From: a phage
DNA length: 64,000 bases
Strand: one strand, 5' to 3'
Sequence record: PX421306.1
Below the pieces are notes generated by a model that saw only the letters and a program-made list of their open reading frames with translations, had not been told where the DNA came from and ran no database searches. Below, piece after piece: positions 50,466-57,304 of this stretch (position 1 is its first letter; the number at the start of each line of letters is the position of its first letter). The position numbers were made by a program, and so were the translations under genes.

Positions 50466-51635
50466 TTAAAAATATTTTTTAAAACTCATCATAACTTTAT
50501 CATCAACATCATTATCAATCTGTGCAACAAGGTAAGATGACAGTTCTACTTCTTGTGGCGCTGATTGAACATTATCAGAATTAAGATATTCACGAATCCA
50601 AGGATACGGATGTTTAACCGGAGCATCAGTAATTGGGCATGGAAGACCGCACTGTTTCATACGAGATACAGTTAAGTAATCAATAAAGCTCCACATGCTA
50701 TTTGTATTTAATCCAGGAACATCGCCATCTTTAAATAAATGAACTGCCCAGTCTTTTTCTTGACGGTTAACTTCCATGAAAATATCAACTGCTTCTTGTT
50801 CACACTCTTGGGCGATTTTAACCCATTCATCACCATCAGTGCCAAGCTGAAGTTGACGAATAATATATTGGGTGCCTTTAAGGTGTAGCTGTTCATCACG
50901 AGCAATGAACTTCATAATCTTGGCATTACCTTCCATGATTTCCATGTTTTTGTGGAAGTTAAATGTACACGCGAAAGATACGTAAAAACGAATAGCTTCC
51001 AGAGCGTTGATTACATGAAGGCAAAGATAAAGAGATTTCATTAATGCTCGTTTAGTACATTCAACAACTTTGCCTAACTCTTCTTTACGAAATCCTTCTG
51101 ATAAAATTCCTTCATAATCTTCAACCGCATTCTGATATTCACGAGTCTTAACTAGAACGTCATCATAATAACGACCAATAGATTCAGCACGTTTCATGAT
51201 AGCTTTATCTAATACAATCTCATCAAATACCTTTGACGGATCAGTATAAAGATTTCGCATAATATGAGTATATGAACGGCTGTGAATAGTTTCACTAAAA
51301 GTCCATGTAGCAACCCATGTATCAAGGCTTGGGTCTGAAATTAATGACATAAGTACAGCAGACGGTGCACGACCCTGAATGCTATCTAGAAGTGATTGAT
51401 ACTTCAGGTTATTAGTAAAAATATCCTGCTGATATTGAGGAAGCTTATTAAATTGTGCAGCATCCATCATCAAGTTTACTTCTTCAGGACGCCAGAAAAA
51501 TGACAACTGCTTTTCGGTTAAATCTTCAAAAACTTTATGACGTTGAATATCATAACGCGCAATACCAAGACCTGAACCGAAGAACATAGGTTCTTTTAAA
51601 ACATCAACTGGATTTGTATTAAAAACTGTGCTCAT
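50466..51635 (-). CDS. nrdB: Ribonucleotide reductase small subunit NrdB, uninterrupted
   Basis: About 388 aa, the T4 NrdB length, in one continuous frame; ferritin-like R2 protein. Confidence 0.9.
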   Translation of the reverse strand: MSTVFNTNPVDVLKEPMFFGSGLGIARYDIQRHKVFEDLTEKQLSFFWRPEEVNLMMDAAQFNKLPQYQQDIFTNNLKYQSLLDSIQGRAPSAVLMSLISDPSLDTWVATWTFSETIHSRSYTHIMRNLYTDPSKVFDEIVLDKAIMKRAESIGRYYDDVLVKTREYQNAVEDYEGILSEGFRKEELGKVVECTKRALMKSLYLCLHVINALEAIRFYVSFACTFNFHKNMEIMEGNAKIMKFIARDEQLHLKGTQYIIRQLQLGTDGDEWVKIAQECEQEAVDIFMEVNRQEKDWAVHLFKDGDVPGLNTNSMWSFIDYLTVSRMKQCGLPCPITDAPVKHPYPWIREYLNSDNVQSAPQEVELSSYLVAQIDNDVDDKVMMSFKKYF

Positions 51636-51686
51636 AAATTTTCCGCTTAGTTAATAGATAGTGACTCGTCCGTGAGTCAAATTATA

Positions 51687-52676
51687 TCATAATTTACAGG
51701 ATGAACAATCTTCAGCTTTTGGAGTTTCTATTTCATAATCATCAGTACCAGAACCGTCGCGGGTATTATGATAATAGAAATTTTTTCCGCCAAAATACCA
51801 AAAGTACAAAAGGTCATCAATCATTACAGACATTGGAACCTTTCCTTTTGGAAAAATCTGCGGGTCATAATATGTATTCGCTGAAGCTGATTGACATACC
51901 CATTTCAGCATAATAGCTACCTGCGTAAGATAAGGTTTATTACCTTTCTTAGCCAATTTCCACGTATAATCATAGAGGTCTATGTTATGTTCAATATTGG
52001 GCACGACTTGATTAAAGGAACCCTCTTTTGACTCTTTAACAGAGACTGGTCCACGTGGAGGCTCGATACCGTTTGTACTGTTAGAAACTTGGGAAGATGA
52101 CTCACATGGCATAAGTGCTGATAATGTGCTATTACGAATGCCAAAGAGCTTAAGGTCTTCCCGCAGCGACGACCAGTCACAAACGTATTTTGGAGCTGCG
52201 ATTTGGTCAATCTTTTTATTGTACCAGTCGATAGGTAATTCGCCTCGAGACCAACGAGTGTCTGAATAATATTCGCAAGGTCCTTTTTCTTTGGCGAGCT
52301 TAATGGATGCTTTAATGAGTCCATACTGTAATCTCTCAAATAGTTCATGTGTTAAATCGTTAGCATCTTCATAAGAAGCAAAGTTACTTGCCAACCAAGC
52401 TGCATAGTTAGTAACACCTACACCAAGATTTCGACGCTTTTTAGCCTTTTCTGCTTCAGGAACTGGATATCCTTGGTAATCCAAAAGATTATCAAGAGCA
52501 CGAACTTGGACTTCTGCTAATTCATTAATTTTATCTTGGTCTTGCCAATCGAAGTTATCTAACACAAATGCGCTAAGGGTACAAAGCCCCACTTCTCCCT
52601 TGTTTTCAATAACTTCTATTGTAGTATACTCATCATCTTCGTAAAATTCATCTACAAATTCATAATCAATATTCAT
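51687..52676 (-). CDS. nrdA: Ribonucleotide reductase large subunit, C-terminal fragment
   Basis: 329 aa beginning with its own ATG; contains 'GLCTLSAF' (the E. coli NrdA C462 region) and a C-terminal 'CSSC' pair. Confidence 0.85.
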   Translation of the reverse strand: MNIDYEFVDEFYEDDEYTTIEVIENKGEVGLCTLSAFVLDNFDWQDQDKINELAEVQVRALDNLLDYQGYPVPEAEKAKKRRNLGVGVTNYAAWLASNFASYEDANDLTHELFERLQYGLIKASIKLAKEKGPCEYYSDTRWSRGELPIDWYNKKIDQIAAPKYVCDWSSLREDLKLFGIRNSTLSALMPCESSSQVSNSTNGIEPPRGPVSVKESKEGSFNQVVPNIEHNIDLYDYTWKLAKKGNKPYLTQVAIMLKWVCQSASANTYYDPQIFPKGKVPMSVMIDDLLYFWYFGGKNFYYHNTRDGSGTDDYEIETPKAEDCSSCKL

Positions 52677-53511
52677 TTAATTCTTCTACCTTTTTTCTAG
52701 TAATTCCTAAAGCTTTAGATGCTCGATGTATTGATTGATATTCTATACCGTTTATTTTTACAGCAATTAAGTTATGGGGTTTTAATCCCTTTGGATGAGG
52801 TTTACTGACGAAAACTAAATTATCAAGCTCTGAAATCTTATCCAATTTCTTACACTTAAATCCTTTGTGATGCGCCCGTTTACCTTTACAAACGGCTGAC
52901 ATCGCAGATGGATTTAAATTATGCTCTTTACAAAATTCGTTAAGACCTCGATGAATTTCCTCATGACCATCTGGAAATGTAAACACCCAAGACGTTTGAA
53001 GTCGAGATTTAACTTCTGGAGACATAGGAATACCTTTGTTCCAGGCCGGTTTGCCTTTATTATTTTCAGATACAGAAATAGCCAATTTTCTTCTAAGCCA
53101 CCCATGTCGTTTATTGGTGTTCTTTCGTTCAATATTATCTTCAGAATAAACACACATCATATTAGCGGCAAATATCAATTTATGATTATCTGGATATATC
53201 TTTACTAATAATTGATGAGCTATGTAATGCTCTTCTGGTGTCAAATCTACCAGGTTTTCCTTTGTATCAGAACCACCAATACACAGAGGTATAATATGAT
53301 GTGATTCGGTATAGCAATCTAATTTTCTGTTCTTAGCTTTAGAAATAAGGTTATTGTAAATTTTAGAATAATCCATAACTTTTCCTCTTGTTATGGATTA
53401 TTTATTAACGGTCTGTGTACTTTATTTGCTTTGAATTATACCGCCAGGATTAGCTTCATAAAACTTAGCTACATCCGACTTCTTAATTTTAATTAAACGG
53501 GTTTGTTGACT
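52623..53511 (-). mobile_element. Endonuclease-containing insertion splitting nrdA (about 0.9 kb)
   Basis: Span between the last NrdA-like residues of the N fragment (NDVN) and the first NrdA-like residues of the C fragment; boundaries estimated from alignment by eye. Confidence 0.5.
52666..53376 (-). CDS. HNH-family homing endonuclease (MobE / I-HmuI-like)
   Basis: 236 aa; HNH motif 'SHHIIPLCIGGSDTKENLVDLTPEEHYIAHQ'; C-terminal HTH-like 'INGIEYQSIHRASKALGITRKKV'; own GAGG ribosome-binding site. Confidence 0.8.
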   Translation of the reverse strand: MDYSKIYNNLISKAKNRKLDCYTESHHIIPLCIGGSDTKENLVDLTPEEHYIAHQLLVKIYPDNHKLIFAANMMCVYSEDNIERKNTNKRHGWLRRKLAISVSENNKGKPAWNKGIPMSPEVKSRLQTSWVFTFPDGHEEIHRGLNEFCKEHNLNPSAMSAVCKGKRAHHKGFKCKKLDKISELDNLVFVSKPHPKGLKPHNLIAVKINGIEYQSIHRASKALGITRKKVEELNEY

Positions 53512-54855
53512 ATTCACGTCATTTGTTGGAATAGCAATTTCACAACACAAGTTACTCTGACGAATAGGTGCCTTTTCACGAATAAATGGAGTATAGTTAT
53601 TCGTATTATCAATGAACTGTACATAAATCCTTGCTGTTCCTGAGCGTTCAGTCATAAGTAATTCAAATAGTTCACGGGCTTTAATACGCTTTTTGCGAAT
53701 ATTAGGGTCTTTTTCTGCTGCTTCGTATAATTCGCGGAAACGGTCTTGGTCTTTAAAATAAGAATAATAAAGCTCGCCACCCATTTCATGCGGACTGAAT
53801 AAAGTAATGTAATCGTTCTTTCCGAATCGTTCCATCATCAAATCATTCAGCTGAACACCATAATCCATATGACGGATACGGTTTTCTTCTACACCTTTAT
53901 TATTTTTCAAAACGAGAAGATTTTCAACTTCCAAATGCCAAATAGGATAATAAGCAGTAGCAGCGCCGCCACGAATTCCGCCTTGTGAACATGATTTAAC
54001 AGCAGTCTGAAAATGTTTCCAAAAAGGAATAACGCCAGTATGACGCACTTCACCTGTGCCAATCTTAGAACCTTCAGCACGAATCATACCAACGTTAATG
54101 CCAATTCCAGCTCGTTTAGAAATATACTCAACAATTGAAGCAGAAGCCTTATTGATAGACTTCAGCGAATCACCTGCTTCAATAACAACGCATGAACTAA
54201 ACTGTCGAGTTGGAGTACGACAACCAGCCATAATAGGAGTTGGCAATGAAATCTGTCGAGTAGATACTGCTTCATAAAAACGGATAACGTGTTTTAATCT
54301 ATCAACAGGTTCATCTTGATGCAATGCCATTCCAATAGTCATAAATGCAAACTGTGGAGTTTCATAAATTTGACCAGTGGTTTTATCTTTAACTAGATAT
54401 TTTTCTTTTAATTGCATCGCCCCGGAATAAGTAAATTCCATATCCCGCTCATGCTTAATTTTTGATTCTAAAAATGTAATTTCTTCGGCAGAATATTTTG
54501 ACAACAATTCAGGGTCGTATTTACCTTCATTTACACAGTAAGAAATTTGATCAATAAATGAACGTGGTTCATACTGCCCATAAACATGCTTACGAAGAGC
54601 GAACATTAAACAGCGTGCAGCTACATATTGATAATCAGGCTCTTCAACTGAAATAGAATTCGCAGCAGCCTTAATGACAATAGTCTGAATGTCATCAGTT
54701 GTCATTCCATCACGGAGATATGATTTAATATTTTCATATAATTCATAAGGATCTACAGATGTTCCTTCAGCTGCCCAAGATAAAACTTTAATAATTTTTT
54801 GCGGGTCAAAGCTCTGAGAAACACCACTACTTTTGATAACATTAATTAATTGCAT
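53422..54855 (-). CDS. nrdA: Ribonucleotide reductase large subunit, N-terminal fragment
   Basis: 477 aa; class Ia RNR alpha through 'SNLCCEIAIPTNDVN', then 29 non-homologous residues and a stop. Confidence 0.85.
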   Translation of the reverse strand: MQLINVIKSSGVSQSFDPQKIIKVLSWAAEGTSVDPYELYENIKSYLRDGMTTDDIQTIVIKAAANSISVEEPDYQYVAARCLMFALRKHVYGQYEPRSFIDQISYCVNEGKYDPELLSKYSAEEITFLESKIKHERDMEFTYSGAMQLKEKYLVKDKTTGQIYETPQFAFMTIGMALHQDEPVDRLKHVIRFYEAVSTRQISLPTPIMAGCRTPTRQFSSCVVIEAGDSLKSINKASASIVEYISKRAGIGINVGMIRAEGSKIGTGEVRHTGVIPFWKHFQTAVKSCSQGGIRGGAATAYYPIWHLEVENLLVLKNNKGVEENRIRHMDYGVQLNDLMMERFGKNDYITLFSPHEMGGELYYSYFKDQDRFRELYEAAEKDPNIRKKRIKARELFELLMTERSGTARIYVQFIDNTNNYTPFIREKAPIRQSNLCCEIAIPTNDVNSQQTRLIKIKKSDVAKFYEANPGGIIQSK

Positions 54856-55171
54856 AAGTCCTCAACTTGAAAATCGTCTTTAAACAATCGGTTAACTATA
54901 TGAGCTATTATATCACCATGACACGGCTTTGGTTTACATGTGCATCCTAGCCTCATTCCACGTAAAGGCTCTAAATGTGCTTTAGTTATTTCTCCGGATT
55001 TAATTCGACGTATAAAATCTTTTTTGAATAATTCAATGGCAGCCTCCCGGCTGCCAGCATCTTTACCGACGTAATTTCCCAAAATGTACCACGGTGAATA
55101 TTAACATCAAAGTCGGATTTATATTTATTCACTACCCGGCATAGACGGCCCGCGTGGTAATAGTTCGTCAT
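54846..55171 (-). pseudogene. DUF4326-like small gene interrupted by a 1-nt frameshift
   Basis: Frame A (55171 down to about 55079) encodes '[20 protein letters not shown]'; frame B (55082 to 54846) encodes 'GNYVGKD...LGCTCKPKPCHGD'; frames meet at a GGG run at 55078-55080. Confidence 0.45.
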
Positions 55172-55400
55172 ATTGTTTTTCCGTTAAAACAGTAATATCA
55201 TAATAACAATCAGAAGAAGTTTTAACTGTAGAAATTTTATTATCAAAATACTCACGAGTCATTTTATGAGTATAATATTTTTTGCCATAAATGATAATAG
55301 GCTGTTCTGGCCCTGGAACTTCCAGTTCACTTGGATTAGGAAGTGTAAAAAGAACGACACCAGAAGTATCCTTAAATCGTAAAATCATATATCCTCTCAA
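55125..55400 (-). CDS. Hypothetical protein, 91 aa (nrdA.2 position)
   Basis: ORF between td and the DUF4326-like gene. Confidence 0.55.
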
Positions 55401-55411
55401 TTAAATTAAAA

Positions 55412-56271
55412 TTACACCGCCATCTTTCCTTTAATTGGCGGATGAGATACATAGTTGTTAAGAACAAAATTATGTGGCTTTGCGAATTGACTCAACCAAA
55501 ATACCTGAGATTCTGTGCCCCATTCATCAAATTCATCTGGAAATTTTAATTGTAATTCACATAAATCCATAGGTTCACGACGTAAAATTTCTTTACATTG
55601 TTCTACGTGATTCATATAGATATGAGTATTACCACCAGAAAATATCAAATCTCCTGGAATAAGATTACACATCTTAGCTACAATATGAACTAACGTAGCA
55701 TATGATGCAATATTAAATGGAAGACCGAGGAAAACATCTACCGAACGTTGATACCACTGCAAATCCAAATAGCCATTACGCACATTAAACTGATAGAACA
55801 TATGACAAGGTGGCAATGCCATCTGCTTGAGTTCTGCCGGATTCCATGCTGAAACAATTTGACGTCTATCATTTGGCAGTTTTTTAATACGATCAACAAC
55901 TTCTACAATTTGGTCTACACCGCCAAAATCACGCCACTGTTTTCCATAAATTGGACCAAGTTCACCGCTATGATATCCTAAATCTTTTGCTTGATTTTCG
56001 TAATTTTCATCCCAGACTGTTTTGCCTTGAATTAATGAATCGTGTTGAATTAATCGTAAATCATTAACATTTGTGCTTCCTGATAAAAACCAAAGGAGCT
56101 CAGCAATGCAAGCTTTCCAGGCAAGCTTCTTAGTCGTTACTGCAGGAAAACCTTTAGTTAAATCCCAGCGTAATTTAGTACCGAACAAAGCAATTGTTCC
56201 TGTGCCTGTTCGGTCATCGGTTTCATAACCGTTTTCCAGGATATCTTTAATTAAAAATTGGTATTGTTTCA

Positions 56272-56272
<1 letters not shown>
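55412..56272 (-). CDS. td: Thymidylate synthase, uninterrupted
   Basis: ATG at 56272 (MKQYQ) gives 286 aa, the T4 TS length, in one continuous frame; active-site 'PPCH'. Confidence 0.95.

Positions 56273-57304
<1,032 letters not shown>

Follow-up and report, generated by a model that had tools for sequence, protein, structure and literature searches.

A candidate coliphage homologue of the Aeh1 genes-in-pieces ribonucleotide reductase: a probable mobE-type cassette in a T4-type nrdA gene

The phage sequence record PX421306.1, a stretch of 64,000 nucleotides (nt) that is referred to here at its full length as the window, encodes the large subunit of ribonucleotide reductase in two pieces. The genes of the locus all lie on the minus strand, and the list of open reading frames (ORFs) gives their order as the nrdA N fragment, an HNH endonuclease gene, the nrdA C fragment and nrdB. 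A preliminary description of this DNA had proposed that nrdA is split by the HNH gene, that the C fragment restarts inside that gene by translational coupling, and that the leader of the C fragment is a diverged copy of the target site, left by insertion with flanking co-conversion. The split and the co-conversion are supported by the analysis reported here, the coupling is not, and the copy of the target site survives in part. We think it probable, and hold the view with good confidence, that the locus is a split-and-reassemble cassette of the mobE type found in phage Aeh1, that it occupies a surface loop of a T4-type nrdA, and that the peptide tails it brings let the two fragments assemble. 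The genes-in-pieces reductase of Aeh1 was reportedly the subject of a paper by Friedrich and colleagues in PNAS in 2007.

Organization of the locus

The window phage is T4-type and Tequatrovirus-like. Its nrdA is interrupted between the codons for the active-site Cys and Glu (C439/E441) and the codon for Cys462, in E. coli numbering. The native part of the N fragment matches T4 NrdA identically through S449 and encompasses the ATP-cone and the all-alpha domain as well as the first barrel half, in which the catalytic Cys and Glu (CCE) are located; it ends in ...NLCCEIAIPTNDVNS, and there the tail begins. Pfam recognizes ATP-cone, Ribonuc_red_lgN and profile positions 1-221 of Ribonuc_red_lgC on the N fragment, and positions 219-523 of Ribonuc_red_lgC on the C fragment from residue 24 onward, the two barrel matches overlapping by 3 profile positions. 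The second active-site Cys is Cys32, in the C-fragment sequence GLCTLSAF, and all catalytic residues are present across the two intact fragment ORFs. The coordinates of these and the other features of the locus are collected in Table 1.

Table 1. Features of the split nrdA locus in the window
Feature	Position	Strand	Details
nrdA N fragment ORF	54855..53422	-	477 amino acids
N fragment, native part	53509..54855	-	residues 1-449, ending ...SNLCCEIAIPTNDVNS
Basic tail of N fragment, cassette-borne	53425..53508	-	QQTRLIKIKKSDVAKFYEANPGGIIQSK, 28 codons; stop 53424-53422
Spacer with endonuclease control elements	53377..53421	-	45 nt
Late-promoter-like box	53406-53399	-	AATAAATA
Hairpin, 13 base pairs	5' arm 53402-53390, 3' arm 53379-53367	-	HNH AUG in 3' arm
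Shine-Dalgarno sequence of HNH gene	hairpin loop	-	AAGAGGAAAA
Putative MobE-type HNH homing endonuclease gene	53376..52666	-	236 amino acids; TGA 52668-52666
Shine-Dalgarno sequence of C fragment	AGGTAGAAG 52691-52683; AAGGTAGA 52692-52685	-	AAGGT core (52692-52688); inside HNH coding sequence
nrdA C fragment ORF	52676..51687	-	329 amino acids; ATG 52676-52674
Overlap of C fragment and HNH gene	52666..52676	-	11 nt; ATG begins 8 nt before TGA
In-frame TAA directly before C-fragment ATG	52679-52677	-	ORF reading
Acidic leader, cassette-specific, C-fragment residues 1-19	52620..52676	-	MNIDYEFVDEFYEDDEYTT
Donor NrdA surface loop, C-fragment residues 20-30	52587..52619	-	IEVIENKGEVG; E. coli NrdA ~450-460
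Recoded nrdA tract	52569..52595	-	EVGLCTLSA; Cys32 at 52583-52581
C fragment, native remainder	51687..52568	-	second barrel half and C-terminal redox cysteines
nrdB	51635..50466	-	ORF

Aeh1 MobE, with which the HNH protein shares 44.9% identity over 96% of the length, is its nearest full-length relative outside the coliphage cluster; a metagenome-scale protein search added full-length relatives at 50-83% identity. It matches the Pfam family PF22083 (I-HmuI_NUMOD-like) with 37.5 bits, above the cut-off of 27. The HNH family PF01844 scores 18.2 bits, under its cut-off of 21.4, and the HH...N...H motif aligns with that of Aeh1 MobE.

Boundaries and spread of the cassette

The uninterrupted nrdA allele of phage IME339, which is 99.5% identical to the window in the flanks, served as the reference for the boundaries of the insertion. 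The last base on the left that is common to both is 53508, after the Ser codon of TNDVNS, and perfect identity resumes at 52568, with a foreign segment (53507-52569) of 939 nt standing in place of 35 nt, for a net gain of 904 nt. The body of the N fragment differs from IME339 at 3 positions in 1346 nt, 2 of the 3 lying within 40 nt of the junction, and the remainder of the C fragment differs at 6 positions in 882 nt. The G+C content of the cassette is 32%, as compared with 36.5% and 39% for the flanks.

At the right-hand end of the foreign segment, the tract that encodes EVGLCTLSA differs from its IME339 counterpart (EIGLCTLSA) at 11 of 27 nt, with one amino-acid change (I to V); the recoded codons include TTG to CTT, TTA to CTT and TCT to AGC, and there are changes elsewhere in the tract. 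Beyond it the next mismatch is 400 nt away (52169), the background divergence being ~0.4%. This tract, which supports the earlier suggestion of flanking co-conversion, appears to be a piece of donor exon that was carried in with the element and co-converted, and it probably gives its carriers immunity to their own endonuclease.

The same split arrangement is found in 33-35 sequenced phages, carrier coliphages such as vB_EcoM_112, HY01 and FL33 among them. In a comparison of the window with phage PTE-Eco05 the cassettes are 98.7% identical (918/930), whereas the identity is 71-76% for the body of the N fragment and 78% for that of the C fragment; it climbs to 90% over the last ~100 nt before the left junction, and the tail and leader codons fall within the block of high identity. 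In PTE-Eco05 the recoded tract (TGTACT CTC TCT GCA) stops short of the point that it reaches in the window and in phage FL33 (TGTACC CTT AGC GCA), which is the pattern expected for independent end-points of co-conversion. Cassettes that are ~99% alike among phages with diverged flanks indicate recent homing. The cassette thus seems to spread horizontally as a unit, and from the contrast between cassette (~99%) and flanks (~76%) and the variable ends of the recoded tract, the endonuclease would be expected to cleave cassette-free nrdA and so to drive its own inheritance, i.e., to home.

Conservation of the tail and the leader

We compared eight lineages of the cassette, namely the window, Aeh1 and six metagenomic loci (L009-L014). 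In L009-L013 an HNH gene separates the N fragment of nrdA from a C fragment that overlaps it, with td and nrdB as neighbors; in L014 (50% identity) the upstream ORF is cut at the end of the contig and gives no Pfam hit, and it ends in the same nrdA junction and tail. Besides L014, the HNH homologues examined are 53-67% identical and all lie inside a split nrdA. The N-fragment tails of the window, of Aeh1 NrdA-a and of the six metagenomic lineages have in common the motif PT-x9-L[IVF]K[IV][KR]K[SK][DE][IV]xxF. The C-fragment leaders of the eight share [YF]E[IFV]V.E.YED[DE]EYTT-x11-[LI]C, in which x11 is always 11 residues long and ED[DE]EYTT is invariant in 8/8 lineages. The two peptides are of opposite charge: from PT onward the window tail has a net charge of +2.8 and an isoelectric point (pI) of 9.7 (9.7-10.0 for the tail overall), and the window leader has a charge of -10.5 and a pI of 4.1, while across all eight lineages the tails range from +2.8 to +6.4 and the leaders from -7.5 to -14.5. 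Mean pairwise identity is 53% for the leader, 54% for the endonuclease, 41% for the tail and ~62% for the NrdA cores. The conserved motif residues are specified by synonymous codons (five for Leu, from both families, four for Ser, three to four for Thr), and their retention through such changes argues that selection acts on the peptide. Tail and leader are absent from the uninterrupted NrdA of IME339, T4 and JS10.

More leader-bearing C fragments are present in the protein database (P0122, P0124, P0127 and P0132), as well as remoter acidic leaders (P0136 and P0139). Together with such loci, tail and leader are conserved in at least 10 lineages besides the window and Aeh1. Upstream in the locus of P0136 (L016) is a gene of the same endonuclease family, which overlaps by 11 nt. 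In that of P0139 (L015:1478-4008; ENA ERZ27315285 k141_73620) the split of nrdA falls in the same loop, and the fragments are separated by a 77-nt spacer with no endonuclease gene; the tail is related and has the same x9 spacing (FVRVPKGKVDEF), the leader reads DDEYEY..., and the leader-bearing C fragment has a Shine-Dalgarno sequence of its own. L015 seems to be a cassette whose endonuclease was lost, nrdA having stayed in two pieces. A G+C-rich inverted repeat (GGAGGCGCAGCCGCCT) was also noted in its spacer. A short leader query of a 5.8-billion-protein database, whose word index limits such queries, matched one fragment, and a scan of IMG/VR for the back-translated motif YED[DE]EYTT returned Aeh1 itself and two chance matches in unrelated genes. 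Dhakavirus was considered as a donor of the leader, from tblastn alignments that reached leader residue 19 in JS10 and relatives, and was rejected: the JS10 loop is of the ordinary T4 type (PTTDVNSPDAEIG), and the extension therefore comes from nothing more than weak T/V matches.

Relationship to phage Aeh1

In Aeh1 the nrdA gene is split by mobE into nrdA-a plus nrdA-b, mobE overlapping with nrdA-b; NrdA-a has a basic C-terminal tail (pI 10.4), NrdA-b has an acidic N-terminal tail (pI 3.8), and an N-terminal peptide, MIEHERIYEVYE, has been detected by mass spectrometry (Crona et al. 2011, Nucleic Acids Research; PMC3045599). The two proteins stay separate, keep their tails and make a fully active enzyme, and deletion of the tails lowers activity ~2000-fold, with neither the (alpha-a/alpha-b)2 dimer nor the holoenzyme being formed (PMC3045599). 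The same authors obtained no matches in database searches with the Aeh1 tails; they proposed that the tails had come in with mobE and raised a decayed split intein as an alternative (PMC3045599).

The window resembles Aeh1 in that a homologous HNH endonuclease gene interrupts nrdA in the same loop between the active-site cysteines, after a spacer of 45 nt (46 nt in Aeh1), with a hairpin and a late-type promoter box over its translation start, and in that the second active-site Cys of the C fragment is Cys32 (Cys31 in Aeh1). The N-fragment tails correspond (...IPTNDVNSQQTRLIKIKKSDVAKFYE... in the window and ...LPTVPMGKKEKMLFKVKKSEVDKFKL... in Aeh1), and so do the C-fragment leaders (MNIDYEFVDEFYEDDEYTTIEVIENKGEVGLC and MIEHERIYEVYEDEEYTTVEIEVDVSEISLC); the homology extends to LIKIKKSDVAKF versus LFKVKKSEVDKF and to YEDDEYTTIEVIE versus YEDEEYTTVEIEV, and the Aeh1 NrdA-b tail MIEHERIYEVYEDEEYTT is the homologue of residues 1-19 of the window leader. 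There are also differences. The endonuclease gene and the C fragment overlap by 11 nt in the window and by 14 nt in Aeh1; the host loop is 3 residues shorter in the window, and the N fragment keeps the native NDVNS; the window hairpin hides the AUG and has the Shine-Dalgarno sequence in its loop, whereas the Aeh1 hairpin hides the Shine-Dalgarno sequence; and the window has a fresh, sharply bounded recoded tract, recent homing being undocumented for Aeh1. The biochemistry comes from Aeh1 and the window version is known from its sequence, from which the locus appears to be a coliphage homologue of the Aeh1 genes-in-pieces reductase.

Control of the endonuclease and translation of the C fragment

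The RNA around the HNH start folds with an energy of -13.8 kcal/mol (z = -4.57), and the same stem arrangement recurs in 7/8 lineages. When the eight lineages are aligned on the hairpin, 86.5% of the cells are paired, as against 35-43% in slid registers, and five pairs change on both sides, a level of covariation that 0/500 shuffles reach. The corresponding Aeh1 hairpin has 13 base pairs over the Shine-Dalgarno sequence (z = -4.98). In the window the 5' arm of the hairpin shares bases with the late-promoter-like box, and a perfect TATAAATA occurs in L010, L011 and L014. This computational evidence points to an endonuclease whose translation is repressed by RNA structure and escapes through a late promoter: with its AUG in the hairpin and the promoter box on the 5' arm, the HNH gene is probably not translated from the early nrdA mRNA, and late transcripts, which would start inside the 5' arm (near 53393), would free the AUG. 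Control by hairpin and late promoter has been described for I-TevI, I-TevII, I-TevIII, segB and Aeh1 mobE (review, PMC2988022). As with I-TevI, the endonuclease start in the window is occluded by a hairpin whose 5' arm overlaps a late-promoter box; the window arrangement differs in having been read from the DNA alone.

The placement of the C-fragment ATG, directly behind an in-frame TAA and 8 nt before the HNH stop codon, was confirmed, as was the ribosome-binding site that the preliminary description had recognized upstream of it (AGGTAGAAG). The AAGGT core pairs with the 3' end of 16S RNA at -4.9 kcal/mol, in a duplex that ends 8 nt before the AUG; for comparison, 46 long ORFs of the window have a median of -5.6, the value for nrdB is -3.5, and 10.6% of random 22-mers score as well. 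A Shine-Dalgarno sequence stands 3-10 nt before this AUG in 8/8 lineages, at -3.9 to -7.3 kcal/mol, and the RNA around the start is unstructured (z = +0.5 in the window; range for the eight, -1.2 to +1.7). Every lineage starts its C fragment with ATG and overlaps the endonuclease gene by 8-20 nt. In related cassettes the codon at the position of the in-frame TAA is TTA, TCA or AAA, so the TAA is incidental. No other in-frame ATG, GTG or TTG lies ahead, which leaves ATG 52676 as the sole start that would retain Cys32, and it corresponds to the Aeh1 start confirmed by mass spectrometry. The earlier choice of 52676 as the start is thus the one that the sequence favors, and we infer that initiation there is independent.

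The alternative account, that the C fragment is produced by termination and reinitiation from the HNH gene and that its leader is a decayed duplicate of the target site with no role of its own, strikes us as improbable. Its first part, which is the translational coupling named in the preliminary description, draws on the overlap of the two ORFs by 11 nt and on the overlaps found in all the lineages. The HNH AUG, however, sits inside a hairpin that is conserved and covaries, so that translation upstream should be low when NrdA is needed. In addition, the NrdA halves are required 1:1, the C-fragment Shine-Dalgarno sequence is in open RNA in every lineage, and it is also present in L015, which is without any upstream HNH gene. 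The three Aeh1 polypeptides are reported to be translated independently, with MobE expression inhibited by RNA structure (PMC3045599; Fig. 5 legend for the fragments). Since the HNH gene is probably silent when NrdA is needed early, since the halves are needed equally and since L015 lacks an upstream ORF, dependence on translational coupling is unlikely.

Origin of the leader

The second part of that account rests on the collinear likeness between PTNDVNS at the end of the N fragment and TTIEVIE in the leader. The two share 2/7 identities and score +4 with BLOSUM62, the best of 24 registers, and the likeness is weak (shuffle p = 0.057; background 7-mer p = 0.062). The figures are 3.9 within a lineage and 2.5 between lineages, which was counted as no better within. 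In a codon-level comparison 11/21 nt match, a value that places the junction in the top 1.2% of 918 registers, yet it is tied by one other in-frame register and exceeded elsewhere (maximum 14). The invariance of ED[DE]EYTT and its selection at the protein level also speak against a decayed copy. The loop positions ~450-454 are nevertheless represented on both fragments, and it is in this sense that the resemblance noted in the preliminary description holds.

A phmmer search aligns leader residues V22..C32 with V452..C462 of E. coli NrdA. Native NrdA loops mostly consist of PT and 14 residues, KPL.N[VI].D[DE].GE[IV]A, and T4-type loops of PT and 11; from these lengths and the phmmer register, the x11 segment of the leader matches E. 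coli positions 450-460. The closest native counterpart of the donor loop is ...IENKREIG of Yersinia phage TG1. Lineages with LPTKPLG or LPTVPMG (L012, L014 and Aeh1) are split cleanly between positions 449 and 450. T4-type hosts are without KPL and keep the native NDV(NS), positions 450-454, in a nine-residue spacer before LIKIKK, which accounts for a small duplication of 3-5 loop positions (NDVNS and IEVIE). Homing by double-strand-break repair replaces the flanks of an element and does not duplicate them. The leader is a two-part structure, residues 1-19 being the conserved acidic tail of the cassette and residues 20-30 the loop of the donor; the view of it as a decayed copy of the target site is probably wrong, the former being a conserved cassette motif and only the latter NrdA loop. 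The junction likeness argues weakly for a degenerate copy.

Other origins and fates of the split gene

Another possibility, which concerns origin and is compatible with an Aeh1-type cassette, is that the tails and the endonuclease are a decayed split intein with its free-standing endonuclease. Split-intein nrdA genes do occur at a site 10 codons away, the halves are oppositely charged in both systems, and there is a superficial likeness of KIEY...VYD to KIEYEIV..FYED and of LVDIKINDKF to LIKIKKSDVAKF. When hidden Markov models were tested with real nrdA inteins from the catalytic Cys (L010, P0125, P0142 and others), however, the scores of leader versus C-intein, C-intein versus leader and start of the N-intein versus tail all fell within the shuffled distributions. 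The insertion sites differ as well, and the segment CxEIAxPT is on the N fragment here and on the C fragment in split-intein genes. We consider such an origin improbable.

A disabled nrdA remnant in a phage that depends on the host reductase is a very unlikely interpretation. It could appeal to the nonessential nature of phage nrdA under laboratory conditions, but both fragments are intact, ~99.5% identical to the uninterrupted allele and complete in catalytic residues, and the split is maintained with frames undisrupted in 35 sequenced phages and also where the NrdA cores are just ~50-80% identical. The tails are conserved at the protein level, and the Aeh1 enzyme is fully active.

Removal of the interruption by splicing, as a group I or group II intron or as an intein or split intein, with full-length NrdA as the result, can practically be dismissed, even though phage ribonucleotide reductase genes often carry introns and inteins and related nrdA genes have, 10 codons upstream, a (split) intein that sits at the catalytic Cys (L010, P0125, P0142 and others): an Rfam scan of 51000-55500 on both strands at E <= 10 found no intron family and just two chance hits (small nucleolar RNA and long non-coding RNA families), a Pfam search of both fragments found no Hint or intein domain, tail and leader together (~50-60 amino acids) are below intein size and lack the terminal Cys and His-Asn blocks (the tail starts QQTR and the leader ends ...GEVG-L), tail profiles score no better than shuffles against intein termini, and the Aeh1 proteins stay separate and retain their tails.

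A model for the cassette

The Aeh1-type cassette that we favor would operate as follows. On entering nrdA it supplies the N fragment with its basic tail and a stop codon. The spacer hairpin, overlapped by the late-promoter-like box, would hide the endonuclease start codon on read-through mRNA, and expression of the endonuclease would then be confined to late times. The MobE-family HNH gene has, within its last codons, the Shine-Dalgarno sequence and ATG of the C fragment, to which the cassette adds the 19-codon acidic leader, the donor NrdA loop and the stretch of recoded exon. The C fragment would be translated independently from the early polycistronic nrdA message. By analogy with Aeh1, the basic tail and the acidic leader would let the N and C polypeptides of the window phage form an (N/C)2 large subunit that works with NrdB, and the two peptides probably hold the NrdA pieces together. 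The recoded exon would shield carriers from their own endonuclease and mark the co-conversion tract left by homing.

Several observations weigh against parts of this model. T4 nrdA is dispensable in laboratory hosts, so that function in the window phage is not guaranteed. The C-fragment Shine-Dalgarno sequence is no more than average in strength (-4.9 kcal/mol), the late-promoter box of the window has one mismatch to TATAAATA, and the 11-nt overlap is compatible with some reinitiation during late translation of the endonuclease. An AlphaFold model of the C fragment alone has a confident core, a predicted local distance difference test (pLDDT) value below 50 for residues 1-21 and intermediate values for residues 21-30, in agreement with a leader of two parts; the leader is disordered and of low confidence in a model that is uninformative on an interaction between tail and leader.

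A broader reading, for and against which we see matters as about evenly balanced, is that the basic tail, the regulated HNH gene and the acidic leader make up one self-contained mobile unit, which has spread by homing among numerous T4-like lineages at a single nrdA site and which also works as a ratchet. Such a unit would carry a protein clasp that neutralizes the damage it does, and this would be a third way, besides introns and inteins, for a homing endonuclease to reside in an essential gene. As the split persists after loss of the endonuclease (L015), two-piece reductases would be created permanently.

Comparison with other interrupted phage genes

The intergenic mobE of T4-type phages belongs to the same endonuclease family and the same operon, and the N-terminal ~98 residues of the window protein are ~66-67% identical to intergenic MobE-type proteins, e.g., that of RB51; the intergenic mobE differs in that it interrupts no gene, carries no tails and has another C-terminal half. 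T4 genes 39/60 with mobA are a further case in which a free-standing HNH endonuclease splits the gene of an essential enzyme (topoisomerase), but the host gene is another one and gene 60 also uses ribosomal bypassing. According to Crona et al., gp39 and gp60 carry tail-like extensions of opposite charge (PMC3045599).

The fractured split-intein nrdA genes (Dassa et al. 2009; PMC2677866) resemble the window locus in being split near the active site, in that an endonuclease gene can sit between the halves, and in that charge drives the association of the halves; they differ in that protein trans-splicing at the catalytic Cys joins the halves again, whereas the window has no Hint domain and its fragments presumably stay separate. 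C fragments of this fractured type, ~350 amino acids long (P0125, P0126, P0133, P0142, P0175, P0182, P0189, P0219 and P0240), begin with a C-intein (MIKIEYL...VYDITVED...LVHN|C.EI.LPT); P0125 is from a cultured T4-like phage, Yersinia phage vB_YenM_TG1, with its split intein at the catalytic Cys. In L010:707-4287 (ENA ERZ14207129 NODE_16) two different mobile elements are found 10 codons apart in one nrdA: the catalytic Cys is the site of a complete mini-intein (...SNL|CLSGDS...ILVHN|CLEIAIPT), after which comes a mobE-type cassette with tails.

Neighboring genes and annotation

In the window td (55412-56284) and nrdB (50466-51635) are uninterrupted and without group I introns, unlike in T4, and the nrdA-nrdB spacer (51636-51686, 51 nt) is without mobE, the nrdA insert being the sole mobile element of the operon. 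That spacer holds a terminator-like hairpin (TGACTCACGGACGAGTCA and a T-rich run) at 51662-51679 on the minus strand; in a scan of the region, terminator-like and sigma-70 promoter sites were no more numerous than in shuffled controls. A DUF4326 ORF (54846-55082, 78 amino acids, nrdA.1-like) extends 10 nt into the N fragment, which starts at 54855, and a DUF4326 gene is also found upstream of nrdA in L009, L012 and L013. The nrdA operon of the related loci looks like a hotspot for mobile endonucleases: L009:4269-4910, which lies after the nrdA C fragment and before nrdB, is a NUMOD3 protein, L011:311-1039 is a GIY-YIG/NUMOD3 gene upstream of nrdA, and ORFs of ~255 amino acids precede nrdB in L010 (4329-5093) and L014 (2219-2995). 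More distant full-length relatives of the HNH protein (~33% identity over 99%) are encoded by vB_EcoM-G28, PYps10T and Proteus PM2, where they adjoin or overlap an annotated DNA helicase gene, which may be another gene interrupted by this endonuclease family.

GenBank and RefSeq records annotate two nrdA pieces and a homing endonuclease. The naming of the halves is a recurrent problem, since they are inconsistently named or left unannotated: RefSeq calls them "NrdA-like aerobic NDP reductase large subunit" and "ribonucleotide reductase", and among the inconsistent records, which include KF925357/NC_027349 (HY01), PQ642267 (SH-2) and OK570375, some fragments are unannotated or entered as hypothetical proteins. 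One genome paper reads the homing endonuclease of its phage as a sign that introns are present (PMC10236363); in the accessible genome papers of carrier phages the split nrdA is not mentioned. A literature search that covered few subscription journals found no description of the coliphage version or of tail conservation.

Implications

The split reductase of Aeh1 has so far been treated as a one-off, and a 2023 paper still uses the words "in at least one instance". The same cassette is now seen in ordinary T4-type coliphages, among which it has spread, and it can outlive its endonuclease. As judged from the metagenomic lineages, the conserved parts of the element are the tails, the overlap at the start site and the hairpin that controls the endonuclease. 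If the reading as a mobile unit is true, the conserved tails are the comparative evidence that was missing to the proposal of Crona et al. The observations support the idea that a mobile element may bring its own antidote to the gene fragmentation it causes, and the coliphage carriers, as phages of E. coli, would make it easy to study assembly driven by the tails, homing and immunity.

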